The translations under genes were made by a program, and so were the position numbers. From a virus (lineage: Duplodnaviria; Heunggongvirae; Uroviricota; Caudoviricetes): a stretch of 64,000 bases of DNA. The stretch lies in IMG/VR virus record IMGVR_UViG_3300024272_000021. One strand, given 5' to 3'. Positions 4,361-56,507 of this stretch are shown here, in pieces. Positions within the stretch are counted from its first letter, which is position 1; each line of letters opens with the position of its first letter. The notes beneath the pieces were generated by a model, which saw nothing but the letters and a program-made list of their open reading frames with translations, did no database searches and was not told where the DNA came from.

Positions 4361-4761
4361 TAGAAGTAATTGCTGCTTAATAGTAGCATTCTACGAATAG
4401 TTTCCGTATAAAGTAATTTATATGATAAATAACACATTGAAATGCTGGAACACCCTAAAGCTCATATACCAAAGCGGAATGATGAAATAAACATAAACGT
4501 TATGGTTGCGAAAGCAGAAAAAAGTTATGAGATGATACATGGTTAGATCCTAAATATTATTGTAATGGGTAATCAGCAGGGAAGCTCCGAACAGGAGAAC
4601 CCTCAACGACTATTCCCATTAAGGGAAGTACACAATAAGCGATTGATTGTGGAAGTGGTGTGCCCCACATGCGTGGGTGAAGATATAGTCTGTGCTTTAT
4701 CGAAAGATAAAGGGCGCATTTGTGTGCCGGGTAAATGTAGCGGTTTACTCAAACTTAACAG
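4361..4761 (+). mobile_element. Group I intron 1 (ORF-less, 401 nt) in the major tail gene
   Basis: IGS GAAUAGUUUC (4395-4404) pairs with both the exon-1 end GAGAU (U.G) and the exon-2 start UGUUC. P7 is GACUA 4608-4612 / UAGUC 4686-4690, with AAGAUAUAGUC J8/7. The intron ends in G and splicing restores the frame. Confidence 0.9.
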
Positions 4762-4796
4762 TGTTCAGCATCGTGATTCCGGGCGATGAGGAATAA
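4762..4796 (+). CDS. Major tail protein, exon 2
   Basis: 35 nt that complete the split Leu codon and encode FSIVIPGDEE-stop. Confidence 0.8.
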
Positions 4797-4810
4797 TTTT
4801 ATTGTATCAC

Positions 4811-4839: not shown

Positions 4840-4958
4840 ATATTTATGAGATAGGTGTGGCGTCATGAACCATATCAACAAGGGCTAGGGCCTCTCACCT
4901 AGCCCTTCTCATATTTGATTATCAATTGAGAGAAGCAAATGATAAGAGAGGTATTTTT

Positions 4959-6095: not shown

Positions 6096-6449
6096 GTGAG
6101 CCAAATGGCAAGGCGTGATAGAAAATGCTATTTATGTAGTACTTCATATAAATATTGTCCCACATGTAGTGATGACAAAAATAAACCCTCCTGGATGGCA
6201 GAGTTCCACGATGAAAACTGTAAAAACATTTTTCAAATTTGCACTAATTTTAACCTAGGTGTGCAGACTAAATCTGAGGCTCAAGCTGCGCTAGAGCAGT
6301 GCGACCTCTCTAATAAAGAAAACTTTAAATCTTACGTCCAGCAAGATCTGGAAAATATCTTCAAGGAAGAGCCCAAGTTTAAGCGCGGCAAGAGAGCCGA
6401 AATGGGCATCTTTGACGATGCAGCACATGAAGTAGTTGAAACCGAATAA
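6096..6449 (+). CDS. Cys-rich (Zn-finger) conserved tail-region protein
   Basis: CYLC...YCPTC motif; GAAAGGAG RBS; follows the tail tube gene. Confidence 0.6.
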   Translation: MSQMARRDRKCYLCSTSYKYCPTCSDDKNKPSWMAEFHDENCKNIFQICTNFNLGVQTKSEAQAALEQCDLSNKENFKSYVQQDLENIFKEEPKFKRGKRAEMGIFDDAAHEVVETE

Positions 6450-6515: not shown

Positions 6516-6749
6516 ATGCTTACATATTCAAAAATATTAAACAAATATTACGATGCAGAAAACGGGAATGTCGTATATGTTACCAATATGTTGCAAGCAC
6601 AACGCTACTTAAATAACGGCGGCGTTGAAGACCTTGTAGACATTTTGTATAGCGGTACGAAACGTGAAGATACACTTGTTTTTGTATTTCTAAAGACACC
6701 TCGTGTTCAGGAGCTATATAAAAAATGGCAGGCTCATGAACTGAATTAA
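6516..6749 (+). CDS. Small protein, possibly DUF5659-like
   Basis: ATG 6516 after an AAGGAG RBS; pattern QAQRYL..G...LVFVF.K...LYKKW. Confidence 0.5.
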   Translation: MLTYSKILNKYYDAENGNVVYVTNMLQAQRYLNNGGVEDLVDILYSGTKREDTLVFVFLKTPRVQELYKKWQAHELN

Positions 6750-36300: not shown

Positions 36301-39300
36301 GATTTGTCCCAATATAAAATGTTCGATGCAAGAGTAGGCGAACTTGCTGCAAAGGCGAATGAATTTTTTACCAACTTAAATGGTGTTATATATGGTTATT
36401 TAATGGACTTCTCAGGTGAAGAGGTAGCTAAAATAACAAATACTATGAGCGTAGAAGATCTATACGCACAGTTCCAAGAAGTATTTAAAGGTATCAATAT
36501 GGATTTTGAAACCTTTAAAAATTTTGTTGAAAAGTCCCAGGCAATTGTTGAAGGACATGATTTCGCGGAATTTAAGCAACCTGCTATAGATCAAGGCATT
36601 GCAAAAGCAGGAGTAGCCCATAAACTACAGGGTGTTTCAGAGGAAATATTTAATTCCGATAGCTTCCAGACTCAGTTGATGAAGATGCTTGGATTTGAGG
36701 GCATCGATTTACGTGGAACCAAATTTAATGGCACATATAGCGGCGGCACAGTTGTATTCGATATTAAACCCGAAAGTTTAACGGCTGTTAATGAGAGAAT
36801 GTCCGATGTTATAACTCGTGAGATTCCGAAGGAAGAGTTTGAGATTACACCAGACTATTTAGAGCGTGAAGAAAAGCGTAGGCAGTTAGCTTTTGAGACG
36901 GCTGATGCAAATAGTAAACAGGCTGAAGGAGCTACGGTTGCGGTTAGAGAAGAAACGGCTGCACACCAAGCAAATACGGAAGCTATACAAAGAGAAACAG
37001 AAGCCAAGCGTGAACTTGCGGCGACTACAGGGGCAGATTATAGCGAAGATGACAGAATGGTTATAGAGCAAGCCGAAGCTAGAGCGAAAGCCGCAGAACA
37101 GGTTGTTCAACAAGTTAGCGCGAGAGTAAAAGCTGCAGAACAAGCCTCAAAAGAAGCTGGACTTCAAAGAGATCAAAAAGGGTTTGTCGTAGATAAAGCT
37201 AAAGAGACTCTTCGTGGTAAGCAGGCTAAACTAGAAATGGCAGAGCAAGCTAAGACTCAGGCCGAGAATCGACAGCAGTATGTAGAACGGATTAAGGCTG
37301 AGATTGAGGAGGCGCAGCAAGCCGCAGAGCAAGCTAAAGCTGAAGCTGAGGAAGCGCAACGGGCTGCAGGACAGGCTAAAGCAAACGCTGAGATATGGGA
37401 AAATAATATAAGAGAAGCAGAAGCTGCAAAGCGGGATGCGGAAAAGAATTTGGGACAAACTAAGGCAACATCAGAGGTGAAAGCCAAAAGAGCAGAAAAG
37501 GCCAAAGAAAATATACAAACCGCCCAAGACGCCGTTGTTGCATTAGATACTGAATTTCAACGTTACGTGAACCAACTTGAAATAGATGGCAAAATTGATT
37601 TAACAGAAATGATCAATTATGAGGATTATCAAGCCGTTTTAAAATCTATTCATGATGGGACTCATACTACGGTAGAGGCCTGCATTAGTGAATTTGAGAA
37701 ATTAAGTGCGCAACATGATATTTTGCCTCAGCATCAAGAATTAACCGAGAAAGAAAAGAAAATATCCCAAAAACAAACAAAAAAAATAAATGAAAAAAAA
37801 ACTGATTTTCAAATTGCGACACTCGAAGATTTTTCCAACGTTGTTAAACGCAATCAATTCGCAAAGACACAAAACCGACTTCGTCATTCTGATTCATTGC
37901 AACAAGAGATCGATGATACGTCGAGGTCTATGGAGGAATTCCAAAAACAATATGGCAAGATAATTGTTACGATGCGAGATGGCTTAAAACAAGAATCGGA
38001 AACTATGAGCGACCAAATTAGAGAATTTTTATCGAAGGTTTTATATGATAAAGCCGAAATCCAAGATATCGAATTTATATCTACAGCGGAACTTCAAGCT
38101 GAAGCTGAAAAGATTAAAGAGCGCAGAAAAGCTAGAGGTTCTGAAATGGCTCAAATACCCGATTCTGAAAGAGAAGCCAAGATGATTGAAGCGGCTCAAA
38201 CTAGAGCAACAGAGTCTCCTGTTGTAAAAAATGCAGTTAAAATAGCCGAAGAAAAAATAAAAGATGCGAATAGGGCTGCAGAGGAAATTCAAATAGCTGA
38301 AATGGCGTTAAGGGCCGCAGAAGATAAACTTGCAGAGCAGCAAGCCGTTTCTCCTTCTAATATGGCAAGGCGAGCCGAGGAAGCGACTAGAGCAGCTGCA
38401 GCACAAAAATGGATGGCAGAACAAAAGGCTTCGCTTATTGGCAATGATTCTAGCGATTCTGATGTGGCTGAGAAATCTAAAGCAGTTGAAGCGGCTCGGC
38501 TTGAAGTAGAAAATGCGGAAAAGGAATTAGCTCAAGCTCAAAAAGATTTGGAAACAGCAGAGCAAACATATCAAAAAGCGCAAGAAACGGTTCGTGTTGA
38601 AAAGGATGATTTAGTTAAAGCTCAACGCGATAAAGAAGAGGCATATGGCGTTTTATTTGATGCTGAAAAGCAAACTAAATCTGCTCCTGCTGAACCAGCA
38701 CAATTTGATCATGCGGAAAGTATCGAGCAAGAAGCCCAGGCTCATCGTGATAACGCTATCGCTATCGAAGCTGAAACTGCTGCTACTCAAGATCTTGTAA
38801 ATGTTCAAAACCAAGCAGAAGATAGTTCTAATGTAGAAGAAGTTTCTGAATCGTTGCCCGAACCTGAAAAGGTTTTCGATACTGAAAGTGGTCAATTAGC
38901 CATGTTTGAAGGAATGTCCGAGAGTGCTCAAAAGGCAAAGGATGATGTTTCTCAATTAAACGAAGAAGTTAAAGCTATCGAGGGACAGATTGGAATAGAT
39001 GAAATCCAAGAAGAGTTATCTCCCGTTCAAGAGCAACCCGAACCTCAAAATGTTGAAGTTTCTACTGAAAGTATAAATAGGTTAGCTGAAAGTGCCGAAA
39101 AAGCGAAGGCGAATGTTGTAGAATTGAGTAACGCCGTTGAGGAAGTAGACAAAGCAGATGATACACCTGCCGAATCCACTCCCGTAGAAAATATTTCCGA
39201 AGAATTGTCTGAATCCGCAGGCGTCGATCAATTGACTGGCAATGTTAACGAGGCAACAGACGCTCTCATCAGAATGGGCGATGAAGCAAAAACTGTTGAT

Positions 39301-40880
39301 GCCCAAATTGAAAATCTAGGAGATCAATCTACTCAGCCGCTTGTTGAGGTGCCAGAGACTAAAGAGGAACCGCCAATTCAAGTTAACGAAGTAGAAAAGG
39401 TAAACGATGCCCTTAAAGAACAGGAAAATATTGTTCAAGGCATTGCTGATGCTCAAACTCCTGTTGTTAATGACGTCCCTGTTATCGAGGCAGAGAATCA
39501 GGGGTTAAAAGAACAGAAGACTCTTACTGAGGACATTGCAAATGTTCCACAGCCTCCTGTTGAAGAACCAAAGAAAAAGACTAGAAAAAAGAAAATCAAA
39601 GAAGAACCTAAAAAAGATGATACTCCTCAGGAGCACAAGGAAAATGCACAGGCTATTGAAGCTGAAGCTGCGGCTACAGATAAGTTAGCCGATGCAACTA
39701 AAAGGGCAAATGCTGAGAAGAAAAAGGCCGAAGATGTGAAAACATCTTCTCGTAAAAAGGCAACAGTTTCTGACGAGGAAAGAGAAGAAAGAAAGGCTCG
39801 TAAGGCCACTATTGACAGTACGGAGAAAAAGCTGCGCGGAAAATTTAATACTCTTGACTTTAAAGTTGATACACAGAATCTAACTGACGAACAACAAAAA
39901 CTTGCTGATGAATATAAGAAACTTAATGATATTCTTGAGCAGTACGGAAGAGATGCTTCAAAAGTTAGTCAGCAGGAATTGGCCGATACACTACAAAGAG
40001 TTAATGCACTACAGCAAGAAATAGATGCATATAAGACAAAGTATAATATTGTTGATGGTCGTGGTGGCACTAAAAATGCATATGGTAAGACTGCTGTAGT
40101 TAATGCGCGGGCTAAGTACAATTCTATTGAAGGCAGGGCACAAGCATATGCTGGTTCTACTGTTGTCGATCCGAAATTAAAAGAATATAAAGCATCTTTA
40201 GAAGAATTAATAAAACTGCAAGCCCAATACAAGAGTGGACAGGAATTAACTCCTGAACAAGAGACTCAGTTTATAGAGCTAAAAAATAAATGTAATGACT
40301 ATTATAGATCTCTAAAGAAGGTTATTGATGCTTCCGATGAATTAAAAAATAATGGTTCCGAAGTCATGCCTATAATGGATGATATAGCTCTTGATGAATT
40401 TCCTGATAGAGCCCAAGCTTTAAAGAATTATGTTAATGAAATTCATGGATCTCGCGCCGCTATTGGTAAATTAAACGGCGACGCCACCAAGCTGGCATTT
40501 ACTATTAAAAACGGTGACGGAACTATTACCAAGATGACTGCGTCCTTGAATGCGGCGAGAACAGCAATTGTTTCTACCGCTGGAGATACTGAAAAGGCAA
40601 CTACCAAGCTTGGGCAGTTCTTTAGTGGTGTTTGGAGTAAATTTGGAGATTTATGGACATACGCTACTGCAAGATTTGGTGTAGATGAGGTTATTCAGCA
40701 AGTCAGACAGGGTATCCAGTACGTTAGAGATATAGATAGTGCTCTTACTGAACTTAAAAAGGTTACAGATGAAACGGATGCGTCTTATGACAAATTCCTG
40801 CAGACAATGTCTAAATCTGCAAAAGTAGTGGGTAGTACCGTTGCAGATTTAACAAATTCAGCTGCAGATTGGGCAAGGCT
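33376..40880 (+). CDS. Tape measure protein, exon 1 (long N-terminal extension plus start of the PhageMin_Tail-type core)
   Basis: Coiled-coil rich; ends LTELKKVTDETDASY...AADWAR-L, continuing as GYSLEEA at 41201. Confidence 0.85.
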
Positions 40881-41200
40881 TAATATTTAGGTCCCCTATA
40901 TGGCAACATATAGGTAAACACCCATCTCAAAACGGAGAAACTCCTGAGAAGGACAACCCCGTGGGTAATGTTAAATTTTAATATTTCATTTTAAAAAACT
41001 TCATTTTTATAATAATGAAATATTAAATATTTTACGTCCCGTAACGATCACAGCGTAATTGGCAACAATTATGCGTATGGTGGGGCTCTCTACGAGAGCA
41101 AGGTATGATCTGATCTGCACATATAATCTAATAATGAAAGTGCAGAGATAGGCAGAAATGACCTATCCCTTTTTATTTAAATAAAAAGAGTAACAAAATG
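40881..41200 (+). mobile_element. Group I intron 4 (ORF-less, 320 nt) in the TMP gene
   Basis: 8-bp P10 AAUAUUUA with exon-2 UGGAUAUU; P1 GGCU/GGUC; covaried P7 GAUCA 41046-41050 / UGAUC 41111-41115; terminal G at 41200; the frame is restored. Confidence 0.88.
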
Positions 41201-41722
41201 TGGATATTCATTAGAAGAAGCGGGACAGCTTGCGGAAACTACAGCAAAACTTCTTAATGTATCAGAGTTTACTTCTGTAGATGAAGCAACTTCCGCACTC
41301 GTGTCTGCGCTACAAGCATTTACCCAAGAAGGACAAGATGTTGCACAAAGCGCGGAAGAGATTGTTGACATTTTAAATAACATCGGTAATAAATATCCCG
41401 TAGCCACAAATGAATTAGCAGAAGGTTTGGCGGATTCTGGTGCCGCGTTAATAGCTGCTAATAATACAATTGAAGAACAAGTAGCATTGCTGGCTGCTGG
41501 TAACGCTACTATGCAGGATGTCTCCACTGTGGCAGCGGCTTTGAAGATTGTTGCAGCTAGATTGAGAGGCACTACTATTGAGGCAGATGATGATGCTGAT
41601 TCAGCAATTACCAACGTATCAAAGCTGCAGGCGAAAATTAAGGCATTAACTGCCGAAGCTAATGGCGGCGAGGGTATCGATATCATTAATGAAAAAGGCG
41701 AATATAAGTCAACGTATGAGAT
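41201..41722 (+). CDS. Tape measure protein, exon 2
   Basis: 522 nt: GYSLEEAGQLAETTAKLLNVSEF...NIGNKYPV...GEYKSTYEI, a typical TMP core sequence. Confidence 0.85.
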
Positions 41723-41854
41723 AAAATTATTGTCTCCATATAGAGAAATCTATATGCTATGTGCGTAAACATAGACAACAACTATATTGGTTAAAGGCCA
41801 GAAGTGGTTCAGACCAAGGTAAGACTTGTAATATTATAAATTAGGAGAAAAGAT

Positions 41855-42037
41855 ATGAATAAATATAGATGTGAATCTGTAAGGTTGTGTAGGTTTTTAT
41901 ATGGTCTTGGATTTGATAAAGAGTCTATTCAATATAAAGGAAAAGAAGCATGGTTATTTGAAAAAAGCGAAGAACTTCAGGAAAGCCTGGACTTCTTTTT
42001 TTATATGCGGAAAAAGATAAAAAATATTAATTTATGA
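41855..42037 (+). CDS. Intron-encoded small protein (DUF5659-like, tentative)
   Basis: Own AGGAG RBS; YRCESVRLCRFL...WLFEKS motif, homologous to 53078-53266. Confidence 0.65.
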   Translation: MNKYRCESVRLCRFLYGLGFDKESIQYKGKEAWLFEKSEELQESLDFFFYMRKKIKNINL

Positions 42038-42064
42038 TTGTAATTTTAAAGGAGCGAATGAAAT

Positions 42065-43588
42065 ATGGGATTTAGTTTTTATGATTGGTGTATAGAAAAC
42101 AATCGGAGTGATTTATTAGATAGATGGAATTATGAGTTAAACCATTGTTCTCCAAGGGATGTAAAATATAGATCGGGTAAAGATATGTATTTTAATTGTA
42201 TGAATAATAATCATCATGTGCCAGAGAAATTTCGAATTGATCATATTACCTTAAATACAGTAAAAGCAACATGTAGGCAGTGTAATTCTTTTTATCAATG
42301 GTGTCTTGATAATGGCGAACAAGAGCTAATTGATACATGGGATTATAATTTAAATGTGGATGATATTCATTTTGTCGCATATGCAAGCGGCAAGCGATGT
42401 TTTTTTAAGATATTAGATAAATATCCTAGCATTAGTTATCGTTTATCAGACATTACTAGTTCTAAGCATCTTAGTCCGATTAAAAAATTTTATAATTCGT
42501 TTGGATATTATTTAATACATACATATGGAGAAGATGCAATAGCAAAATATTGGTCTGATAAAAATAATAAAACACCTTGGAATTATGATAAAGGAAGTGG
42601 TAAGAAGGTTTGGTTTAAATGCCCGGACAAAAATTATCATGATGATTATCTTACTGAAATTTATTCTTTTACGATGGGGAGTAGATGCCCTTGGTGTGCG
42701 GGTAAAAAAGTTCATCCCAAAGATTCTTTTGCTCAATATAATATAGATAAATTTGGCATGGATTTTTTAGAAAAATATTGGCATAAAGAAAATATTATAG
42801 ACCCATGGACTATTCGTCCGTTTGCAAATAATATAAAAGTAATTATTCAATGTCAGCATAAAACGTATCATCAGTATGATGTTGTAGCAAGCGATTTTTC
42901 AACTGGGATCGATTGTCCGTATTGTAATAAAAAAAGATTACATATTTTAGATAGTTTCGGTATGCGTTTTCCAGAAGTTTTTGAAATTTGGTCTGATAAA
43001 AACGCGCAAACTCCCTTTGAATATCGTGTGGCTAGTCATGAAAAAGTATGGTTTAAGTGCAAAGATGGAAAACATGAAGATTATTCGCGACGGATATCAG
43101 ATTATTCATATAAACATTTTACCAGATGCCCATATTGCGTGCAGGAATGTGGCGAATCATCTTTTCAAAATCAAGTTAGAGTGTTTTTAAATGAATTACC
43201 CTATCAAATTTTACATGAATATAACTGTACTATCATTCCGATTAATTCAAAAACAAATCGTAAAATGCCATTCGATAATGAAGTATGTAATATTAATGGA
43301 ATAAATTTAATTATAGAAGTTCATGGTATTCAGCATTATGAACTATGTGGATGGCATATTACACAGGCAAAAAATAGTGGACGAACTCCCGTAGAAGAAT
43401 TTGAATATCAAAAATGGAAAGATAATTTTAAGAAGAATTATGCAATCGCACATCAATATGAATATTTGGAAATTCCATATTATAGAATTATAGACGATAC
43501 ATATAAAGATTTAATCATGTCTAAAATTAATTTAATAAATAATATAATATTACAAGAAACCCTAGAGACTGCAGGCGGTATGTGGTAA
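42065..43588 (+). CDS. Intron-encoded homing endonuclease-like protein (Zn-ribbon repeats plus Vsr-like domain)
   Basis: Repeated VWFKC...CPYC motifs; IIEVHGIQHY and YEYLEIPY; the 3' end overlaps the intron P7 element; paralog of 4959-6065. Confidence 0.8.
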   Translation: MGFSFYDWCIENNRSDLLDRWNYELNHCSPRDVKYRSGKDMYFNCMNNNHHVPEKFRIDHITLNTVKATCRQCNSFYQWCLDNGEQELIDTWDYNLNVDDIHFVAYASGKRCFFKILDKYPSISYRLSDITSSKHLSPIKKFYNSFGYYLIHTYGEDAIAKYWSDKNNKTPWNYDKGSGKKVWFKCPDKNYHDDYLTEIYSFTMGSRCPWCAGKKVHPKDSFAQYNIDKFGMDFLEKYWHKENIIDPWTIRPFANNIKVIIQCQHKTYHQYDVVASDFSTGIDCPYCNKKRLHILDSFGMRFPEVFEIWSDKNAQTPFEYRVASHEKVWFKCKDGKHEDYSRRISDYSYKHFTRCPYCVQECGESSFQNQVRVFLNELPYQILHEYNCTIIPINSKTNRKMPFDNEVCNINGINLIIEVHGIQHYELCGWHITQAKNSGRTPVEEFEYQKWKDNFKKNYAIAHQYEYLEIPYYRIIDDTYKDLIMSKINLINNIILQETLETAGGMW

Positions 43589-43760
43589 CATGTGCCGTGA
43601 AGTTGTTCTCCCTGTCAACAATTGTTGACGAGAGTAATATCCAGTCCGACCTCACACTATAACTAATTATATATAAAATGTGAGATGTAGGTCGAAAGTC
43701 CTACACGCCGCAATAACATATTGCGGTCAGTACCATCATAGATGGGAAAGTAACAGAGTG

Positions 43761-46700
43761 ATTATCAGAAATTTCAAAAATATTTGACAAAATGGACGAC
43801 CTATCGGCAGCTAACCTTTTGGAACTTGTAGCTGGTAAGAATAGAAGCTCGGTAGTTGCAGCCATTCTTCAAAATGGAGATATTTTAGACGAAGCATATA
43901 CCGACGCTTTTGATAGTGCCGGAAGTGCGGCTAATGAATTAGACACCTACTTAAATTCTATCGAAGGTAGGATTACCCTCTTTAACACAGCCGTCCAAAC
44001 CATGTGGACCAACTTCCTCGATGATGACGTAATAAAGTGGTTCGTTGATCTTGGAACATGGTTAGTTAAAGCTGCCGATGATGTAGGTCTATTACGTATA
44101 GCATTCGTAGGCTTAATGGGCGTTATGACGGTAAAAAACACCGATAAATTTGATATTGTTGGTTGGTTTGGCAAACTAGCCGAAAGTACTAAAAAAATAT
44201 CCGATATAAAAACTAATGGAATAGCTGAAACCGTAAAAGTTATTGCCTCTCTACCCGATATGCTGTCTGCCGTACAAGGTGTCGAAATATCTATGGATGG
44301 CATAGATGATTTGGCAGTAAAATTAGATGGCGCAACTGCTGCGGCGGCAACGGGACAAGAAGCATTGCAAAAATATGCATCGGGTTTAGGTGATTCCGAC
44401 AAAGCCTTAAAAGCATATATTGCATCTGTTGATGATGGGCAGTATAGCATGGCTGGCTTTAATAAGTTCTGCGATGCACATAATGCCCAGTTACAGACCA
44501 CTAGCGTTAAGACTAAACTTGCAGCTGCTGGTCATGCCGCGTTGAACGCTGCAATAACTATGGGAATTAGCCTGTTAGTAAGTTATGTACTCCCAAAAGT
44601 TATTAATTTCCTTGATGATCTGATACTTACTGCCGAAGAAGCAGCTGAAGCGGCAAAAGAACTAACCGACGCATATAAGACTGCAAAGAAAGAGTTTGAA
44701 GATGATATCGAACTCCTTACTATATCTAGTGACTCCGAATCTTATGAAACACTTTTGGATGAATTCAAGGAATTAACCATGGGTGTAAATAAGTATGGTG
44801 AAAATATATCTTTAACAGCTGACGAATATTCTCGTTATAAGGAAATCTGTGAAGCTATCGTAGGAATTCAGCCTTCTATCGCCAAAGGTTATGATAGCGC
44901 CACCGAGGCTATTGGTAGGAATGCGGGTATACTAGAAAAAGTCATTGGCTTAAAAAAGGAAGAAGCTAGACTGAATGCCGCAGAATTTGTCAGTTATGGT
45001 TTATATTCTGATAATGGTAATTTTGAAACACTAGCAACAAATGCCATCGAAAGTCGTAAAAAGGCGGCTGAAAATGCTTATTTAATGGCAATGGGGTCAA
45101 AGGAAAAAACGGGACTAATTATGGACACCGGATTGGTTAATACTTTGTATGGTCTATATGGCGGATATGACTATGATTATGATGCTGGTGAGTTTATTAC
45201 AGACAGACCATTTGATTCGGATGGAGACCGTCTGGCTACAAATCTTATGAGGATAATAGGATATTCTCCGAAAGAAATTGGTAAGGTATTGCAGACATAT
45301 TATAACGAATCTGGCAACTTTGAACTTGATCGCTGGGCGCTAGACTATCTAGATGAAATTGTAGAAAACAAAACTTTAATTGCAGAAGACGCAAAGAGGA
45401 TGGGGCTAGAGGGTACTGATGAATGGATTAGCACTATGTATGCGGAAGCAGATGCATATGAAAGTGCTTCTAATAATCTTAAAGCCGCAGCAGATAACAT
45501 GATCGATGTGTATCTGCAAATTCCTTATGCCTTAGAAGATTATGACGCTTTGTCTTCCGGTGAACAATCACTTCTTAATGCGTGGATCCAAAACGATGAT
45601 ATGTTTAAAATCGATGAGGAAACAACAGAGGAAGACATCTTAAAGGCAAAACAAACTATCATCGATATGGTTCGTCTGCTTGCCAACGAAGATTATTTCA
45701 CTGAGATTGATGGAAAAAAGGTTAGTGCCGACCTCATTCTTGATAGCATATTCAATCTTGATCCTTCCGAACTTGATTATGCACAATACAAAGAAGATAT
45801 GCAAACATTAGTAGACCATCTATGGAATGCAATTGGTGGAGAAAATAATGAGTTTGGAATTAAGGACAAACAACAATTAATGGTGATGTTCGGAGTCGAG
45901 TTTGTACCAGAAGAAGATGAACAAGCTCTTATAGATGACATCGTAAGAATCACTGGTATGGCACCAGAAGAGGCGCAGAAATGGATAGATGAACAACCTG
46001 CTATAGTTATCACTCGTATGCTTGAGTATGATTACGATGAAATTGGCAATACAGAAGGTTATGACGTAGATGACCTAGCAGAAATGGCAGTTCCGAATTA
46101 CAACTATATCGAGCCTAGAACTGTTAAAACTTATACTGCACTATCCGAAGAAGCATCTAATTATAATGATATCTTAGCGCAAACTAACGAACTTACTGGG
46201 TACAATGTAGAAGTTACTCAAGAATACAAAGACTCCTTAAAAGAGCTAGGAATCACAGATGAAGAACTCAATGAGTGCTTTGATGAAAATAATGGCTTAA
46301 TTGTCACCAACACAAGAAAATTAAGAGAACTCGTTGCAGAAAAAGAAAAAGCTCTTACTACTGATGTTAAAATGGCAAAGGCCCAGTCTCAATTAGATTA
46401 CTATGAATTAGTTAAAGAATTAGATGCTACTCTAGACGGTGTCACAAGTCTTGATGATGAAACTAAAGATTTAACGGATTCAATTTTGGAACAGATTGAT
46501 ATAGTACGAAAAGCCATTAATAATTACCAGCGTCTAGAAGATAGTCTCCTTGGCGTTACGAATGGTTTTGAAAAGTTCCACGAAGCTCAAGAAATAGACA
46601 GTCAAAATACTTATGGTGATGACTATGTTGATATGGCCCAAACCATGTATGATGCTTTCTATGTAAGTGGAGAAGTCGGAACGGAAGCTAATTGGGCTGC

Positions 46701-49700
46701 AATTGAAGCTTTAGTACCTGATTGGGTATATGAAGGTTTAGAGACTGATGGCGAAAGAATGAGGGCAATTTATGAGTATTTCAACAAAGAAATACTTCCT
46801 ACATTAACTCTTGAAGATGGTCAGTTATCTCTTGGATTTGAAAATGTTGAAGATTTCATTGAGCATGGACTTGCCTCTGGCGTTTTTGAGGGAGATCTTA
46901 GCAATTTCAGTCTTGTTGAAGGTTTAGATCTTGAAGAAGCTGCTGAATTAATGGGTATGACGACAACTCAGGCATATGCATTCTTTGCCACCCTTGATGA
47001 CTATACTACGGGAGATGGAATGTCTTTCTTGGCGCAGCTCGATGATAGTTTTTCTGGCAACATCATGAAAACCACTGATGAAATGCAGAGACTCAACGAA
47101 GAGAAATTAGCATTACTTAGTGGCGGTGAAGATGGCATTATTAGTCCCGAAGAGCAAGCACGTATCGACGAGATTAATAATGTAGATTTACCAGCTTGTG
47201 AGGAGAATTTACGGAAAATAGGTGAAACGGCCTATCAAACCTGGGATGAGTTTAAACACAATGAGATAGCCCTTGCCGCTTTAGGTGAAGTAGAAAATAA
47301 AGCTCAAAAAGTATCCGATGTGTTCTCGAAAGAGTTTATTGCTGAATTTGGTCTCAATGGCGACGACACAATCCAAGAAGCATATGATGACCTATTATTA
47401 ATACAATCAGGAATTGAAAATATTGATGCAACATCTGCTGCTGCGGCAATTGACGTAATTGATGAGGAAATTGCAAAGCTTGAAGAGCGGAAACGACGCA
47501 TTAATGAAGACACAACAATGACCCCTGAAATCAAAGCCGCAGAAACCGCAGAGCTTGATGCACAAATAGAAGCATACAAAAGTGATAAAGTTGAAATTGC
47601 AACTGAATTTGGAATTGAATTAACTGAAGAAGAAGAAAAAGATTTAGAAGAACAGTTAGAAGCAATCAAAGAATTTGAAATTGGCAATAAATCATTTATT
47701 GTTACTGACGATGGTACCATAAAGCAAACTATAGAGGCTCTTGACGAACTTAATAAAGTAGAAATAGATGATAAAACCTTTACAACTACGAATGTTATCG
47801 AAGAGAAACATACCAACGGAGGAATACTTGGCTGGATAACTGGAACAGATACATACAAAAAGGCCACTGGCTATCCCGTCAGAGTAGATGGAACTGCTCA
47901 TGCTGAAGGTACTGCTTTTAAAACAGGCTCATGGGGTGCTCCAAAGACCGAAGAAGCATTAGTAGGAGAACTTGGCCCCGAACTACTGGTTCGCGATGGC
48001 AAGTGGACTACTATTGGTGATGAAGGTGCGGAATTTGAACATATTGAAAAGGGTGACATTATCTTCAATCATAAGCAAACCGAAGAATTATTATCCAACG
48101 GACATGTAACTGGACGCGGTAAAGCTTATGCTGAGGGTACTGCTTATAATGATGTCACCGGTGTGTTTAAACCACAGGAAGAAAAATCTGAACCTATTAA
48201 ATATACTACAGTCTTCGATGAAATGTCTGACTATAACGACATTCTAGCTGAAACAAATGAACTTACCGTAGATAATATTGAGGTTACCGAAGAGTATAGA
48301 GAAGCTTTGGAGAAACTTGGTTTTACCGAAGACGAATTGAATACATACTTCGATGATGAGAACAAACTTCTTGTCAAAAATGTTAAAGGGCTTAAAATGC
48401 TCGTTGCATCAAAGAAAAAAGAAAAAGTAGCTACAGTCCAAGAAGTAAAAGCCCGAAATCAATTGGATTATGTTGCCAGTATTAAAGAAATTGGTAAATT
48501 AGTTGACGTCATGGAAGGTGCGTCCCAAACTCAGGAGGGTATTTCTAAAGCAACACTTGAAGCTTCTGATGTTTTACATTCTCACGTAGATGCTCTAGAG
48601 CAAACCATACAAGGTTATGCCCTTCTAGAATTAAAAATGTCTGATGCAGCAGCCGCTTATGATGACTTCGAGATTGCACAGCAACAAGATGCGGAATTGT
48701 CTTGGGGCGGTACCATGATCGATATGCTAGAGGCCATTGACGAAGGTTTTAGAACAGGTCAAGTTGGTTCCGAAGCATTCCAGGCGGCAGTAGCAGCTCT
48801 TGTTCCCGATTGGGTATATAAAGACCTTGATACTGTCGAAGAACAAATGCATGCCATTCACGATTATATTGACAGCAATCCTATTTTTGCAGATTGGTTT
48901 ACTGTCGATGACAATGGTAATTTCTCTATTGAATTTCAGAATATGCAGGCGTTTGTCCAAGATGGTATAGATGGAGTGACCGAATTTGGCGCGGTATTCG
49001 AGGGAACGGTAGATAACTTTACCCTAGCCGAGGGAGTTGATTCCCTAGAAGAATTCGCTAAGAGAATGGGAGTTACTGAGTCTGTTGCTTTAGCAATGCT
49101 TGGCGAACTTGAAAAATATGATGCGCGTTGGGGAAATGTTATTACCGATTTAACTACTAGTCCTTTAGATAGAGAAATTTTAAATGCAACAGAAGCATTA
49201 GAAGATGCTTATACGGCGCAAGAAGAGTTTATACGTAATGGCGGAGATTTAAACAGCGAGGAATATAAACAATTAGTCCAAGATGTTGAAGATGCGGAAG
49301 CTGCATTAGATAGTGCTACGGAAGCGGCAGGAGATTATGCAAGCACCTATTCTCAAGCCGAAGCCGTACTCAAGGGCGTAGATGGACAGATGACTTTTAC
49401 ACAAGAAACAGCAGATGCTTTAGCTAGATCACTTGGTTTAGTAAATGAAAATGGAGAATGTACTATTACTATTGATGATAATGGCAAGCTCTTGCTTACG
49501 GAAAGTCAAGCTGCAAGACTGCAACAAATACTGCAAGTGCTAGGAGAAGAGCCATCTATTATCGATGTGCAGCTTGCATATGATACAGCCGATGCACAGA
49601 TACAAAAACTAGAAAAAATATTAGACGACGGCGTAGTAGATGAAGCCGAAGCAACATTCCTAGTTGAACTAGACATTGATCCAGAGTCCGATAATCTAGC

Positions 49701-52700
49701 ACAAGAAATACAAAATGAGATTGACGAACTTGAAACAACCAAAACCGTTATTAACTTAACATATGGTATTACACAAACATCCGAAGGACAAGATAGCGGT
49801 ATTGAACAGTTATCTACATGGGAAACTAATGGAGTTACTATTCCTATACATGTTGATATTACTTCTTATCAGGAAGAAGCAGCTACCATAAATGAAAGTA
49901 CCCTTGATAATAAAGAAGTTGCCTTCACAGCTGATGCAACAGAAGCAAATGAAGAAATTGATTCCGTAGATAATAATCAAATTAACGACAAAAACGTAAA
50001 GATAAACGTAGATAATACATCTGCTCTAACTAATATAAGCACCGTTCAGACTGCTCTAAATAACCTTAAAGATAAAGAGATCAATATTAAAGTTAAGGTT
50101 AGCGGAGGCAATCCGATAAATGTTGGCGGCAGTGTAGACGTTGATGGTACGGCTCATGCATCTGGCACTGCTTTCAAGAGTGGTACATGGGGTGCCGAAC
50201 AAAATGAAACCGCTCTTGTTGGAGAACTTGGTCCAGAGTTATTAGTGCGTAATGGTAGATGGACTACTGTTGGTGAAAACGGTGCGGAATTTACTGATGT
50301 ACGTAAGGGCGACATCATCTTTAATCACAGACAGACTGAAGAGCTGTTGTCTAAGGGATATGTTACTGGACGAGGAAAAGCATTTGCAGAAGGCAACGCT
50401 TATGGATATGGATTGTTTGGTGATTATATTACCGACAAAGGCTCCACATTCAAAAATGGTTCTGATAAAACATGGTCGAAAACGGCGGATAAAGTATCTC
50501 AAGCTGCGAAAGATATAGGTAGTTCAGCTGAGGATGCAGCTGATGAATTCCGCGAAGTTTTCGATTGGATCGAAGTTCGTTTAGAAGAAATCAACAAAGA
50601 AATAAGCCTTAAGGGTGCCCAGCTCGAAAATGCTGTTGGTTTTACTAAACAAAATGCCATCATTGATGACATGATAGAGCTTAACCAGAAACTGTATACC
50701 AATCTAACAGCTGGTGCTTCTAAATATTATTCATATGCTCGAAATTTGCTTGCTAAAGTTCCTGCCGAATATCGCAAAGCAGCTCAAGATGGTACTATTG
50801 CAATCGAATCCTTTACAGGTAAAGTGGGAGAAGATACACTTGAGGCAATTAAAGAGTATCGCGAATGGGTACAAAAGGGTGACGATGCAACACAGCAAGC
50901 CGAGGAAACCTTAAAAGAAATTTCTACTCTCGCAAAGCAAGCTATTGATAATATTGCAGCCCAATATGACAATAAAGCTTCTTTAAGAGATAGTAAAATT
51001 GAACAATACGAGGCTTATAATGAGTATATAGAAACAGACCAAGGATTCTCGTCTGAAAAGGTCTATAAAGCAATAATAGATCAAAACAATAAAAAGATCA
51101 AAGACAATCAGAACAAACGTGATGACATGCAAGCCGAACTCGATGAAAAGGTTAAGTCTGGAGAAATCAAAAAATATTCTCAAGATTGGTATGACGCAGT
51201 TAATGATATTGCTGCAGTTGATGCTGAAATTATACAACTGCAAACAGATAATGAAAATCTGCAGGACGACATTAATGAACTTCACTGGGATAAGTTTGAT
51301 AGTCTTTTAACTCGAATTGATGCTATTACCGAGGAAACCGAGGGCTTGCTTAAACTTCTTGAGAATGAAGACGCCTTTGACGAAAGTGGTAATTGGACCG
51401 ATGAAGGTATTACTTCACTGGGATTATATGCTCAGCAAATGGAAGCTGCAGAATTTAAGGCAAAACAATTCGAAGAAGAGATTGATTATCTAAATAAGAA
51501 TTGGAAAAAGCTTGGCTATACAGAACAAGAATATATTGAAAAGCTTGCTGAATTGAAAGAGGGACAACAAGATGCTATTGATGCATATCATGACAGCAAA
51601 AAGGCTATAGTGGATCTCAATAAGGAAAGAGTCGAAGCTATTAAAGAAGGCATCCAAAAAGAAATCGAGGCTTACGATGAGCTCATCGAAAAGAAAAAAG
51701 AAGAATTGAGCGCCGAAAAAGACTTATATGACTTCCAAAAAAATGTTAAAAATCAGCAAAAAGATATAGCAGATATAGAACGTCAACTTGCTGCGCTGTC
51801 TGGAGATAATTCTGCATCGGCAAGAGCAAAACGTGCGCAATTAGAAGCGGAACTGGCAGAAGCAAAAGAATCTTTAGAAGATACATATTACGACCGTTCC
51901 ATCTCTAAACAACAAGAAGCGTTGGATGAAGAACAAGAAAATTTCCACGATGCCAAAGAAAAAGAAATTGAGGGCTGGGAAAAATATCTCGAAGACGTTG
52001 AGAAGGTTGTTGCCGATAGTTTAACTACTGTTCAAGCAAATACTGAAACGGTTTATTCAACCTTGCAAGAAATGGGTAACGAATATGGATTATCCATAAG
52101 TGAATCTATAACAACCCCATGGAAAAATGGTGAAACTGCGATTCAGTCTTTCTCTGAGAAATTCGGATTGGCTATGAGCTCAACAGTGGAAGAACTAAAA
52201 GAACTTGAAACAGTATTTAATGAAACTATAAAGGACATTGAACAATCTGGCAAGACGGCTGTTGAGACCGTAAATGAAAGTCATTCAAATTATACAGGAG
52301 CGAGCAAAGAAGAAGCAACGTCGGATAAAGGTAGCGGCGGCTCAAGTGGTGGTTCTAAAGATTCTGGTAATAGTTCTGGCGAAACTTATCCTTACGGCAA
52401 AGCTTCTGCAACTAGTGGAAATATCAAACAAGGTGCAAAGGGCAAAGATGTTAAAGCAATACAATATGCCCTGAATCAACTTGGATATGGCAATTCTGGT
52501 ACTAAGAGCGTCGATGGTATTTTTGGTTCTGGTACTACTAAAGCGGTCAAATCTTTCCAGAAATCAATGGGAATTTCTGCAGATGGTATCGTTGGCGTTA
52601 AAACCAGGCAAAAGTTTAAGGCTAAAGGATATGCTGTTGGTACTACCGGCGTTGATGAAGATCAGTGGGCCTGGATTGATGAAATGGGACTTGAGGAAAT

Positions 52701-53022
52701 TGTTTTACATGCTCAGGATGGTAAGCTTACTTATCTAAGCAAAGGCAGTGCAGTGTTGCCTCATGATATTTCAGAAAATCTAATGAAATTAGGACAGTTG
52801 GATCCTTCACTAATATTAGAACAGAACAAACCATCTGTCGGTCTAGGTTCGAACATTATTAACAATACTATGCAGATCAATGTAGATGCGAGTGTCGGAA
52901 CATTGCTGCATGTTGATGAATTTAATGGAGACGATCCTGCCGAGGTTGTTAAAATTGTTAATAAAGCTCTTGAACAACATACTAAAAATCTCAATTCCGC
53001 GCTTCGTAAATACACTCGTTAA
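43761..53022 (+). CDS. Tape measure protein, exon 3 (internal duplication, C-terminal peptidoglycan-binding domain)
   Basis: Acidic coiled coil; two GELGPEL modules; VDGIFGSGT...ADGIVG PGBD at ~52420-52620; YAVGTTGV...EIV and GSAVLP terminal TMP motifs. Confidence 0.85.
46120..50403 (+). repeat. Tandem internal duplication of a ~2.0-2.2 kb TMP module
   Basis: Copy 1 at ~46120-48147 and copy 2 at ~48196-50403; e.g. YNDILAQTNELT vs YNDILAETNELT, and LVGELGPELLVRDGKWTT vs LVGELGPELLVRNGRWTT. Confidence 0.8.
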
Positions 53023-53030
53023 TCATACTT

Positions 53031-53061
53031 GGGGAGAGGGTCGAAAGACTCTCTCCTATTT
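53031..53061 (+). terminator. GAAA-tetraloop hairpin after the TMP gene
   Basis: GGGGAGAGGGTC-GAAA-GACTCTCTCCT followed by ATTT. Confidence 0.55.
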
Positions 53062-53077
53062 ATATGGAGGAAAAGGC

Positions 53078-53266
53078 ATGGTACAAAATACAGATATTTA
53101 TAGATGCTATAGTGTAAATCTTATGCAGTTTTTATCTCAAAATAATGAAAGATATATATTAATTGCAAAAGATATTAAATCTGATCGTCAATTTTGGGCG
53201 TATGTAAAAACTGATAGATTTAATAATTTGTTACAAAAGTGGATTAATAACAATCCAAAAAAATAA
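53078..53266 (+). CDS. Small protein (DUF5659-like, tentative), homolog of 41855-42037
   Basis: ATG 53078 after GGAGG; YRCYSVNLMQFL...FWAYVKT motif; the ORF-track extension to 52886 is spurious. Confidence 0.7.
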   Translation: MVQNTDIYRCYSVNLMQFLSQNNERYILIAKDIKSDRQFWAYVKTDRFNNLLQKWINNNPKK

Positions 53267-53291
53267 TTTATATATTAGGAAGGTAGATATT

Positions 53292-54596
53292 ATGAGGAAA
53301 TATGAAAAAGTAGATAAATGGATTGATTTGAGCGTATTACCTACAATAAGTAATACTAATAGAATTGATTGGGGTAATTCTATTGGCATTATGATGCAAT
53401 TTAAATACAATAAATACAATGGCATATTAAAAATAGTAAATAAAATTACTAAAGATAAATACAAGGTTGTTCTCTATATAAATAATGAAAGTATAGAATA
53501 CGTGTTAAATTCTAATGGAATTAAAAAATGCGAATTGGGCGGAGCATTTAAAATACCAATTGCAATTACGAATCCAGAGTTTATTAAATATTTTGTTAAT
53601 CAACAGGATGCATATACATACTCAATACAGAGCAATAAAAAGGTTGAAATGATATGTCCGTTGTGTGGTACTAAAAAAGAACAATATGTTAGAGTGTTAG
53701 CTAAGTATGGGCTTGCATGCCCAATGTGTTCAGATGGAATTAGCTATCCAAATAAATTTATGTTTAATGTTTTAACGCAACTTGATATTAATTTTAAGAA
53801 TGAAGTAACAAAAGCGACCCCAGGCTTTGAATGGATTGTAGGAAATTATAGATATGATTTTTATGTTGAATATAACCACACCAAAGTATTTATAGAAATG
53901 GATGGTAAATTTCATTTAGGGAATAAATGGCAAACTTACGAAAAGGCGCAAAAGACTGATCAATTAAAAGATAAACTAGCTTTACAACATGGCATAAAAG
54001 TAATTCGAATAAATTGTATGTATTCGAAAATTCAAAATCGTTATAAGTATATAAAAGACAATATTGTAACTAGCGAACTTAATTCAATTTTTAATTTAAG
54101 TAATATAAATTGGGATGTAGCAAATAGTTTTGCTGTAAGCAGTAATATAGCATTGGCGGCGGAATTATGGAACGATAAAGATTATTGCGTTATAGATATT
54201 GGTAATAAATTAGGAGTGTCGCGTGACACCGCTAGAGGTTATTTAAAAATTGCTTCAAAACTTGGCCTATGTGCTTATAATGATAACGAGGTTGAAATAA
54301 GAATGATAAACAAAATTAAAGAGAATAACAAGAAAAAATCAAAGCCAATAGCATTGTATCAAAATGGAAATATAATCAATGTGTTTCCTGGCGTAGTCGA
54401 TTTAGATCGTAAATCTCAGGAATTATACGGAACACATATAGATTTTAGAAATGCTTATGCTGTCTGTAAAGGGGATAAAAAACAAGCTTACGGTTATACT
54501 ATGAAATTTATTACTCGCGAAGAATATGAACAACTTTATCCGCAATTTAATCAACAATACAACATTAATGAGAATAATTTACAGGAGGTGAGCTAA
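53292..54596 (+). CDS. Free-standing homing-endonuclease-like protein (Zn ribbon, DUF559/Vsr-like nuclease, HTH, NUMOD1-like tail)
   Basis: CPLCG...CPMC; RYDF...IEMDGKFH...KVIRI; C-terminal SKPIALY...CKG.KKQAYGY; the stop codon abuts the Dit ATG. Confidence 0.75.
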   Translation: MRKYEKVDKWIDLSVLPTISNTNRIDWGNSIGIMMQFKYNKYNGILKIVNKITKDKYKVVLYINNESIEYVLNSNGIKKCELGGAFKIPIAITNPEFIKYFVNQQDAYTYSIQSNKKVEMICPLCGTKKEQYVRVLAKYGLACPMCSDGISYPNKFMFNVLTQLDINFKNEVTKATPGFEWIVGNYRYDFYVEYNHTKVFIEMDGKFHLGNKWQTYEKAQKTDQLKDKLALQHGIKVIRINCMYSKIQNRYKYIKDNIVTSELNSIFNLSNINWDVANSFAVSSNIALAAELWNDKDYCVIDIGNKLGVSRDTARGYLKIASKLGLCAYNDNEVEIRMINKIKENNKKKSKPIALYQNGNIINVFPGVVDLDRKSQELYGTHIDFRNAYAVCKGDKKQAYGYTMKFITREEYEQLYPQFNQQYNINENNLQEVS

Positions 54597-56486
54597 ATGA
54601 GTTCATACTATCCTTCATTTAATTATTTAGGTGAAAATTCCAGAGAGAGAAGTCTTGTCATTTCACATTTTGATGCTGACAGTGGAGAAGCTGATACTTT
54701 TTTAGGCATGGAGCCGATTTATACCGAAAGCGCAGATGGATCACGGCGATTAGATTATGGTGCAAAGTATAATAACGTCGCTTCTTTTAGAATTACTACA
54801 ATAAAGCCTGATGGGAGTGATTTATCTGTTGATGAAATTCGCGAACACTTAAAATGGCTAACGGGTTCAAAAAGAAATGGTCCGTTCGAATTAGTAGAGC
54901 ATTTCTCAGAAGAATTTATTTGTGATGGTAAAAAAACTAGTTTTCAACTTAGTGAAACCGGTGCAGGGAAAAACTTATTAGACTTTGGAAAAATATATGC
55001 AAGTAATTCATCCACGGTATGTGAATTTCCAGATGATGATGTACTTCGAATATATACTATTAAAGACAGAGAATATGCAGGTGTTAAGTCGCAAACTTTA
55101 ACACTTAAGGCAGGTGTCACATATACTTTTTCACTTGACGTTACTGAGATTCGATCTGGTGATATACGATTTGGATTTAGATATGGACCACTCCATGAGG
55201 ATAAAGAAAATGATTTTGCAGTATCAGCTACCGTTGCAACATCTACGGGTCATTTTGTAAATCGTATTACACCAAAAACAGATATTGAAGTCTATCCTTC
55301 TGTGCTCGTAACATGGTCAACGGCAGCAGAGGGTGATGCGACTTTTAAAAATCTGCAAGTCGAAGTTGGTTCAATAGATACCGCTTATACGCCACATGAA
55401 TTAAATGGAACCGCAAACACCATTCGTATTTTCTCTGTTAGTGTTAATGGGGATATATTAAAAAACTACGGATATTCTCCTAGCGGTGGAATATTGAGTT
55501 TATATAATACACCAATCCCAAGCAAAGGGGCCGTTATAAAAGTTTCTTATGGACGTATCAAATGCAGTTTTACTGGACGCATAACGAATGCTTGGCAATA
55601 CAAAATGGATGCAAGAACTATAGGGTTAATATTTGAATTTACTAGTATATCACCATGGGCTTATTCTTCGTTACAACTAAAAAACGCAATTGTTAATGAT
55701 CTGCGCTATATAACAATTTTTAATAAAACTGACGATTTATACGGATATACTTTAATGAATACCGTATTTACAAATACAACAGGAACATCTGTAACAATTG
55801 TCAATGAGAACACGGGAGAAAGAACAATTGTAACAAATCTTGCTAAAAACGAAACCATTACTATTAGCGATAATATGATGATTACATCGGATAAAGCCTC
55901 GAAGGTGTTTGGCAATTCATTTAATTATGTTTTTCCACGTCTTGTTGCAGGGGAAAATAGATTAACAATATATGGAACAGGAAATATCCAATTTCAATAT
56001 TATTATTGTATAAAAATTGGTGACTGTGCTATGGATATTAATGTTATTTCTGATCCTATATATGATGATGATGGCAATATACAATTAGATGTTTTACCAT
56101 GGAGTCGCATTACCGACACGCCTACAACTTATCAAGGATATGGAATCACAAATGTATATTCTAAGGTTGAAACTGATCAATTGGTTGCTCCTGTGGCAGC
56201 GCAGATTTCTAATATGTATTCTAAAGCTGAAGTAAACAATATGTATTTAAGTTTAAAATCAGATCTTTCTAAGATTTATACTAAATCTGAAGTGGATAAG
56301 CTATTGTCTAATATAACGGCTCGACTTGCCAAAATTTATACTAAATCGGAAGTTGATGCTTTATTTGATGATGTTTATTCTAAGGCTGAAGTTAATCATA
56401 TGTATTTAAGCTTAAAAGAGGAATTAAATAATATACAAATCGATGAAAAGGAGCTTGCGTCAATGTTGGCAACCGAGCTTAATTAA
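54597..56486 (+). CDS. Distal tail protein (evolved Dit) with inserted carbohydrate-binding module and C-terminal repeats
   Basis: Follows the TMP; SFNYLGENS...WLT...SPWAYS...L.AGEN.L motifs; GKNLLD...LQVEVGSIDTAYTP CBM; five Y[ST]KxEV repeats. Confidence 0.75.
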   Translation: MSSYYPSFNYLGENSRERSLVISHFDADSGEADTFLGMEPIYTESADGSRRLDYGAKYNNVASFRITTIKPDGSDLSVDEIREHLKWLTGSKRNGPFELVEHFSEEFICDGKKTSFQLSETGAGKNLLDFGKIYASNSSTVCEFPDDDVLRIYTIKDREYAGVKSQTLTLKAGVTYTFSLDVTEIRSGDIRFGFRYGPLHEDKENDFAVSATVATSTGHFVNRITPKTDIEVYPSVLVTWSTAAEGDATFKNLQVEVGSIDTAYTPHELNGTANTIRIFSVSVNGDILKNYGYSPSGGILSLYNTPIPSKGAVIKVSYGRIKCSFTGRITNAWQYKMDARTIGLIFEFTSISPWAYSSLQLKNAIVNDLRYITIFNKTDDLYGYTLMNTVFTNTTGTSVTIVNENTGERTIVTNLAKNETITISDNMMITSDKASKVFGNSFNYVFPRLVAGENRLTIYGTGNIQFQYYYCIKIGDCAMDINVISDPIYDDDGNIQLDVLPWSRITDTPTTYQGYGITNVYSKVETDQLVAPVAAQISNMYSKAEVNNMYLSLKSDLSKIYTKSEVDKLLSNITARLAKIYTKSEVDALFDDVYSKAEVNHMYLSLKEELNNIQIDEKELASMLATELN

Positions 56487-56507
56487 CAATGGAGGTGTAA
56501 AAGGAAT

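Follow-up and report, generated by a model that had tools for sequence, protein, structure and literature searches.

A predicted free-standing homing-endonuclease cassette between the tape measure and Dit genes of a large phage, and its small leader gene as a likely partner of nucleases of several classes

Among the selfish elements of large phages, homing nuclease genes are the most common; they shape recombination boundaries and phage competition. To our knowledge, all described controls of such genes are either cis elements or the nuclease itself. The controller (C) proteins of restriction-modification systems are helix-turn-helix (HTH) dimers. This report concerns a two-gene insertion between the tape measure protein (TMP) gene and the Dit gene in a stretch of 64,000 nucleotides (hereafter, the window) of the IMG/VR record IMGVR_UViG_3300024272_000021 (Caudoviricetes); the window belongs to a phage record of 170,431 bp that bears direct terminal repeats, and the host of the insertion is a large gut-type phage. 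Two of the closest described systems are the following. In phage T4, the expression of homing nucleases is held down by terminators, by hairpins hiding the ribosome-binding site (RBS) and by late promoters, and the genes mobE and segF carry internal terminators (PMC2988022). The EDxHD (Vsr-like) homing endonuclease family, which includes I-Bth0305I, was described in PMC3239194 (PDB 3R3P). We found no description of one partner gene that precedes three unrelated kinds of homing nucleases.

On the basis of sequence comparison, we consider the region 53067-54596 to be a free-standing homing-endonuclease cassette lying between a hairpin that follows the TMP gene and the Dit start. It consists of a small leader gene and a nuclease gene; it is very probable that this cassette is mobile and that the small gene partners such nucleases whatever their class. 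The features of the junction are as follows.

43792-53022: last part of the TMP gene, an open reading frame (ORF) of 3,076 amino acids (aa)
53032..53057, plus strand: phage backbone hairpin of 11 bp with a GAAA loop, directly 3' of the TMP stop; a terminator-like site and the left edge of the insertion
53067..54596, plus strand: predicted inserted two-gene cassette, about 1,530 bp, delimited by the alignment of occupied and empty junctions
53078..53266, plus strand: small leader gene for a 62-aa basic DUF5659-type protein (phrog_21297, E 5e-14; family profile)
53240..53257, plus strand: short hairpin TGGATT-AATAAC-AATCCA, which begins on a conserved Trp codon and is followed by A7
53292..54596, plus strand: 434-aa homing-endonuclease-like gene (phrog_4538, phrog_9084)
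54584..54599, plus strand: RBS of Dit (GGAGG, 54584-54588) within the last codons of the nuclease gene, then TAA and ATG back to back
54597-56486: Dit-like gene (DUF6558_C)

The first-pass annotation, which was made from the window sequence alone, proposed that a cassette of a 62-aa protein and a nuclease (53078-54596) interrupts a normally contiguous TMP-Dit junction and that its stop abuts the Dit ATG. Both ORFs (53078-53266, 62 aa; 53292-54596, 434 aa) were confirmed, and the nuclease TAA (54594-54596) is immediately followed by the Dit ATG at 54597. The interruption is supported by five viral contigs that encode Dit relatives (L008-L012): in all of them the TMP stop is followed by the same hairpin, about 70 bp and the Dit ATG, so that the junction is directly joined with no cassette; their TMP C-terminus, Dit and hub protein are 40-65% identical to those in the window. 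The presence of the GAAA-loop hairpin at these empty sites assigns it to the phage backbone. When occupied and empty junctions are aligned, the left edge of the insertion falls just past the hairpin (about 53066) and the right one at the Dit ATG, the cassette replacing about 30 bp of the ancestral spacer between the hairpin and Dit. The first gene of the cassette uses the upstream ribosome-binding position (GGAGG, 53066-53070, 8 nt upstream of the ATG at 53078), and Dit receives a new RBS from the 3' end of the nuclease gene. The two cassette genes are separated by a 25-nt spacer that contains AGGAAGG and leads to the ATG at 53292.

The same junction is occupied in L005, whose flanking genes are only 27-40% identical to those in the window; identity with the window counterparts is 69% for its small protein and 34% for its nuclease. 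Further TMP-Dit cassettes were found in metagenome contigs (L014, L016-L019), the cassette of L013 lies at the Dit-hub junction, and L015 (3950-8184) carries two small-gene and nuclease cassettes, one on either side of Dit. The stop of the nuclease gene and the start of Dit overlap in L005 and L015-L017. In more distant family members (L003, L006, L022-L026) the cassette is found between the portal and scaffold genes. Thus, for a precise site, the presence and absence of the insert are both documented, as is required of a free-standing homing endonuclease gene: the site is empty in L008-L012 and occupied in the window, L005, L014 and L015-L019. The guanine-plus-cytosine (GC) content is 23-31% across the small gene and the nuclease gene vs 35-42% on both flanks (overall, 28% in the cassette, 39% at the TMP 3' end and 34% in Dit). 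The patchy distribution, the GC dip and the precise boundaries together give the cassette the profile of a free-standing homing endonuclease gene. A blastn search of 51500-56500 against GenBank phages gave no match, and neither did a scan of viral contigs with a single protein. As a separate observation, the GAAA-loop hairpin is kept with compensating changes in the empty-site relatives (in L008, GGAGAGGGTC-GAAA-GATCCTCTCC); it may mark the end of an RNA, serve in processing or belong to the nuclease target.

The partnership of the small gene with nucleases was considered in 168 loci with 176 small genes from other phages, collected by two sequence-pattern searches of viral contigs and supplemented by loci found earlier. 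For 165 of the 176 small genes, a same-strand ORF of at least 100 aa begins no more than 200 bp downstream, in most cases after 10-60 nt. The downstream proteins, 129 of which are distinct, are dominated by PHROG homing-endonuclease families and match GIY-YIG (52 proteins), NUMOD1 (49), DUF4379 (29) and CapR (18). Iterative searches with hidden Markov models assigned 78 loci to GIY-YIG and 48 to Vsr-like nucleases, and HNH enzymes were recognised among the remaining loci (L021, L044, L104, L113, L133). The first-pass annotation had claimed that the partner is conserved with different nuclease types and in both intronic and free-standing settings. This is upheld, and the range is wider than was claimed, since it includes GIY-YIG, Vsr-like and HNH enzymes.

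At least 15 changes of nuclease class have to be placed on a tree built from the small proteins (22-29 with shuffled labels, in the draws printed). Small proteins that are 85-91% identical precede a Vsr-like nuclease in one phage and a GIY-YIG one in another; in five such pairs the DNA similarity extends from about 15-25 nt 5' of the small gene to the nuclease start codon or just past it. Of 400 pairs of the same class, 93% show higher conservation in the small protein than in the nuclease. By these comparisons, the small gene with its downstream spacer is a discrete module that is combined with homing nucleases from three or more unrelated catalytic classes, and the small gene stays under purifying selection while the nuclease that follows it diverges, is swapped or decays. 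In three loci (L174-L176) the small gene runs straight into the next phage gene with no nuclease.

Several individual loci deserve mention in their own right. Two of them represent stages in the decay of the cassette: in L165 (3465-4012) the small gene is intact and the GIY-YIG gene behind it has lost about 1 kb internally, and in L174 (3468-3709) deletion has left remnants of both genes, a truncated small gene running into the final 41 codons of a nuclease. In L027-L033 (about 3700-4800) the small gene is followed by a zinc-ribbon protein of about 335 aa (phrog_3314) with no recognisable nuclease domain. After the portal gene of L006 (5546-5943), L023, L024, L122 and L164, an extra divergent copy of the small gene and an ORF of 60-64 aa stand before the usual pair.

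The phage of the window itself contains three Vsr-like and two GIY-YIG genes that we could find, and two clear small genes. Two further features are relevant here.

41855..43588, plus strand: first copy of the module, a 60-aa small gene and a 507-aa nuclease with four zinc ribbons, within an intervening sequence of the TMP gene
6516..6749, plus strand: candidate third, divergent small protein, downstream of the nuclease 4926-6065, with the ORF 6096-6449 between them

The pairwise similarity of the two clear copies is short (53078 vs 41855 by BLASTP: 12 residues aligned, E 5e-4), and for this reason the relationship was tested with a profile. It was built from 81 family members of other phages, with no rows from the window, and was scored against all 881 ORFs of the window: the 53078 protein was found with E 1.8e-26, the 41855 protein with E 1.3e-6 and the 6516-6749 protein with E 0.0084, the next best score being 0.2. 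As a profile free of window sequences finds both copies, they are homologous, and the similarity that the first-pass annotation had noticed between the 62-aa protein and the intron-encoded 60-aa protein proves to be significant. Its third small protein does lie near the first nuclease but downstream of it, and its membership in the family is marginal; with an hhalign probability of 8-21% in addition to the E-value above, the homology is only suggestive. The first Vsr-like nuclease (4926-6065) has no leader gene upstream; after it come a Cys-rich 117-aa ORF (6096-6449) and then this marginal candidate.

Concerning the small protein, 109 homologues of the 53078 protein were found at 57-90% identity, and the family comprises 877 clusters at E of at most 1e-3 among 1.84 billion representatives (clusters at 50% identity). 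Nearly all of the best 150 of these 877 clusters are stand-alone proteins of 55-90 aa. The family signature is [YF]xC[YF]S..L..[FY]L...G..Y....T.K.FW.F....L..L..W, with the Cys (Cys10) invariant, and the 53078 protein is basic, with an isoelectric point of 9.7. Apart from several tandem doublets and a repetitive protein of 1,724 aa, no fused forms were found in these 150 best clusters, or in a search of longer proteins, which is weak evidence. The 1,724-aa protein (P0204) has ten stretches that match the small-protein profile (E 3e-11) and may be repetitive or of low complexity.

The family is related to PF18903 (DUF5659), which is matched by 20 of 26 close homologues at E down to 4.9e-6. The 41855 copy reaches E 6.5e-4 with 19.9 bits, below the gathering threshold of 23.6 bits, and the 53078 protein has no match to PF18903 at E up to 1; on these grounds we file the latter as a divergent relative of DUF5659 and not as a curated member. 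Its AlphaFold2 model (pLDDT 86.7) has the order beta-alpha-beta-beta-alpha and is matched by DUF5659 models of BFVD (TM 0.78-0.82, E 2.6e-4 to 3.1e-4), and the nearest ESM Atlas clusters carry PF18903. In the window subfamily dN/dS is about 0.07-0.3 with synonymous sites near saturation, which indicates that the protein itself is selected and not just the DNA. The family is rare in bacteria and nearly confined to phages: a match was found in 4 of 399 Clostridia genomes, and in two bacterial genomes that hold relatives PF18903 itself has no match. DUF5659 is not mentioned in the literature that was searched.

The 434-aa nuclease matches phrog_4538 (E 4e-46) and phrog_9084, "homing endonuclease" (E 2e-16), and only weakly DUF559 and DUF4379 in Pfam. 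It consists of an N-terminal domain (aa 1-95), a zinc ribbon CPLCG/CPMCS (aa 122-147, 53655-53732), a Vsr-like PD-(D/E)xK core (about 53739-54080) with RYDF at aa 187-190 and IEMDGKFH at aa 201-208, and a C-terminal part with an HTH-like stretch (about aa 268-330, about 54095-54280) followed by a tail. The single ribbon and the two motifs agree with the first-pass annotation. Its "HTH, NUMOD1-like tail" stood in part: an HTH-like stretch is present, with weak matches only (CadC, E 0.39; in the L005 homologue HTH_23, E 0.0045, and I-HmuI_NUMOD-like, E 0.058), and the tail of the window protein has no Pfam match to support NUMOD1.

In 29 aligned catalytic regions, including those of all three Vsr-like nucleases of the window, S151, D189, E202, H208, D223 and K226 are invariant; the common pattern is Ser, Asp (of RYDF), Glu-x-x-Gly-x-x-His and Asp-x-x-Lys, all after the CxxC...CxxC ribbon. 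The AlphaFold2 model of the catalytic region has pLDDT 92.5. Its best structural matches by VIA are a RAP-domain protein (Z 8.9), Vsr 1cw0 (Z 8.5; root-mean-square deviation, rmsd, 3.8; 108 aligned), the catalytic domain of I-Bth0305I 3r3p (Z 8.3; rmsd 3.5; 97/98 residues) and DUF559-like 3hrl (Z 7.3). Foldseek with the nuclease model gave general PD-(D/E)xK matches only, at E 2.5e-3 or weaker; the catalytic core as a single sequence had no match among solved structures, and the nuclease profile found there only zinc-ribbon proteins and 3HRL (DUF559-like, E 0.012), with no match to 3R3P. From the model, the catalytic mode is predicted to be that of the Vsr-like EDxHD homing nucleases. The three Vsr-like nucleases of the window carry three zinc ribbons (4926), four (42065), and one together with the N-terminal domain and the HTH-like tail (53292). 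The "different architecture" of the first-pass annotation is thus correct for the DNA-binding modules and incorrect as a difference of catalytic type: the three nucleases belong to one catalytic family, so that the difference of type within the window is one of DNA-binding modules only.

The first copy of the module was described in the first-pass annotation as intronic. Positions of the PHROG TMP profile continue across 33376-40887, about 41200-41720 and from 43792 onward, and in three relatives (L188-L190, whole-record searches) the equivalent of exon 2 lies inside single open TMP frames of 5,493-5,669 aa. As the TMP frames of the relatives are uninterrupted, the pair 41855-43588 lies within an intervening sequence of the TMP gene. 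Rfam on 40500-44200 gave no intron match at E up to 1, the group I covariance model included. The window TMP (33376-53022) is therefore one gene in three pieces, split by two intervening sequences that Rfam does not recognise; the intervening sequence stands, while the recognition of an intron by Rfam does not. A search of viral contigs with the exon-2 peptide of TMP gave no match. In the record of L005, the equivalent of exon 2 (L191, 75002-76492) is split by about 970 bp at a different position, probably by another intervening sequence.

The RNA level was addressed by a scan for perfect stems (5 bp or longer) with a U tract behind them. A terminator-like hairpin of this kind spans the small-gene stop in 77 of 114 unique loci (68%), compared with 18 of 98 nuclease stops and 9 of 103 stops of upstream genes. 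The conserved Trp codon is in the 5' arm, and the loop usually contains the stop codon. In the window subfamily the hairpin TGGATT-N6-AATCCA is present and invariant in 10 of 10 members; the only RNA structure found in this subfamily is this one short hairpin, which shows no covariation. That at 53240-53257 is not terminator-like, since its 6-bp stem is followed by A7 and not by a U tract. In 33 of 114 unique loci, vs 2% expected, a motif TGT[AG][GA]AAA (as in TATGTAGAAATATTGGAGG) separates the hairpin from the nuclease RBS, 10-30 nt past the small-gene stop, in the spacers of L034-L101 and others; it may be a promoter, an operator or simply a sign of shared ancestry.

We propose the following explanation, a mobile homing cassette with a portable control module, which as a whole we could equally well see confirmed or rejected. 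The cassette would spread by homing: the nuclease would cut cassette-free TMP-Dit junctions of co-infecting relatives, and the repair of the cut would copy both genes in. The small gene would be a portable module of expression control that allows a nuclease gene to be accommodated within an essential late operon. In the majority of the family, the last codons of the small gene and the bases past its stop form the terminator-like hairpin, which would limit read-through into the nuclease gene or tie nuclease expression to the translation of the small ORF, and the basic protein probably binds nucleic acid to tune this read-through step; the median isoelectric point of the family, 9.2, was counted toward such binding. 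In this way the controller would set the timing and amount of the nuclease, for example, by read-through coupled to translation or by the protein binding its own RNA. The U tract would have disappeared from the tail-operon subfamily of the window, perhaps since a terminator at that place would deprive Dit and the baseplate genes of expression. A portable control module is favoured because the common need of these nucleases is sparing, late expression inside essential operons or introns. That the small gene works through a specific mechanism of expression control we regard as possible and lean against; that a DUF5659-type protein and a stop-codon hairpin constitute a dedicated portable controller, exchangeable between GIY-YIG, Vsr-like and HNH genes, is a rather unlikely proposal as it stands.

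A number of points weigh against this interpretation. The 168 loci originate from two pattern searches and are mutually related. The partner is not required for such nucleases, because only two, perhaps three, of the five nuclease genes that our searches found in this genome have it. A terminator inside the operon would also hit the downstream essential genes unless they have their own promoter or antitermination. No terminator-like hairpin was called in the window subfamily (window, L005, L013-L019), and for this reason the control model rests on other subfamilies. In those, the pairs at fixed positions after UGG are A-U, U-A, G-C or C-G depending on the lineage, a variety that is partly built in, because the scan demanded perfect stems; it is supportive but does not amount to a formal test of covariation. 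No solved structure is related to the small protein by fold (Foldseek on PDB, best E 0.3; VIA, Z of at most 4.9), and no recognisable DNA- or RNA-binding motif was found in the protein.

Among the other explanations, the main one is that the small protein helps homing after the cut, protecting the broken ends or channelling them into recombination, for example, by end binding or by blocking a host exonuclease. It takes this place because the window subfamily retains the protein without the terminator; the independence from nuclease class, the basic protein and the strong purifying selection suit it as well. The fold searches, however, gave no similarity to Gam or other end-binding proteins, and the fixed upstream position and the spacer conserved with the gene would be left unexplained, and we consider such a helper improbable. 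The invariant gene order and the tight spacing of 10-60 nt would rather suggest that the small protein binds and works directly with the nuclease (as a subunit, targeting factor, inhibitor or immunity protein), and a small gene ahead of a toxic enzyme does resemble the layouts of antitoxin-toxin pairs and restriction-modification controllers. Nevertheless, a specific binder of the nucleases is unlikely because the enzymes have three unrelated folds: small proteins with 85-91% identity precede nucleases of unrelated folds, no domain is common to all downstream proteins, and fused forms were missing from the best 150 of 877 clusters and from the search of longer proteins, which is weak evidence. 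We would give this possibility little credence, and no more to the next one, according to which the small gene matters as DNA, a conserved landing pad or homology arm with an incidental protein. It is true that the nucleases are swapped exactly at the 3' border of the small gene and that the latter is the only stretch common to otherwise unrelated loci; but the gene is not mere DNA, since its protein is under selection and the gene is absent from the empty sites. The protein is kept although synonymous sites are near saturation, its fold is predicted with confidence, and small genes that lack a nuclease are few and resemble remnants of deletions.

Small basic phage proteins often serve as anti-defence or host-takeover factors, and the near confinement of the family to phages (4 of 399 Clostridia genomes) would agree with a cargo beneficial to the phage that hitch-hikes with the nucleases. 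Such a cargo would have no need of a fixed upstream position and orientation, or of a hairpin and spacer conserved up to the nuclease gene, and we believe this to be very unlikely. Finally, the occupation of the same junction in several phages could be taken to mean that the pair is an ordinary, immobile part of the tail module inherited vertically. This is hardly credible: the cassette is not fixed, being absent from closer relatives (L008-L012) and present in a more distant one (L005), and it also occurs at the Dit-hub and portal-scaffold junctions and in an intervening sequence; the GC dip is a further argument. We retain the mobile homing cassette with a portable control module as the best explanation.

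If this explanation is true, a separate conserved leader gene, common to three unrelated nuclease classes and outlasting the nucleases behind it, would be a new layer in the taming and keeping of homing nucleases, a controller that makes their genes tolerable inside essential operons and introns, and DUF5659 would acquire its first functional context. Since natural empty and occupied alleles exist, the question is open to ordinary phage genetics.

The comparison with the known systems can be made at three levels. The window nuclease resembles I-Bth0305I and the EDxHD family in its Vsr-like catalytic fold and in being phage-borne, as well as in the occurrence of the family in intervening sequences and beside modular DNA-binding domains, and its invariant Asp, Glu, His and Asp may correspond to the composite catalytic motif of that family (Glu, Asp, His and Asp); unlike I-Bth0305I, it has a zinc ribbon of the DUF4379 type ahead of the core, and its HTH-like modules are C-terminal, while the NUMOD modules of I-Bth0305I are N-terminal. 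With the seg and mob genes of the T4 type the cassette shares the intergenic insertion between conserved genes, the patchy distribution and the tight coupling to the downstream gene, and terminators or hairpins hold expression down in T4 nuclease genes as well; the controls there are, however, cis elements or autorepression by the nuclease, and no conserved leader gene for different classes is described (PMC2988022). By analogy of layout, the small gene may be likened to the C proteins of restriction-modification systems, which are likewise encoded directly upstream of nuclease genes of different folds, and this may serve as a working analogy for nuclease expression that is delayed or limited; in contrast to them, its product is predicted to be beta-alpha-beta-beta-alpha with no HTH.

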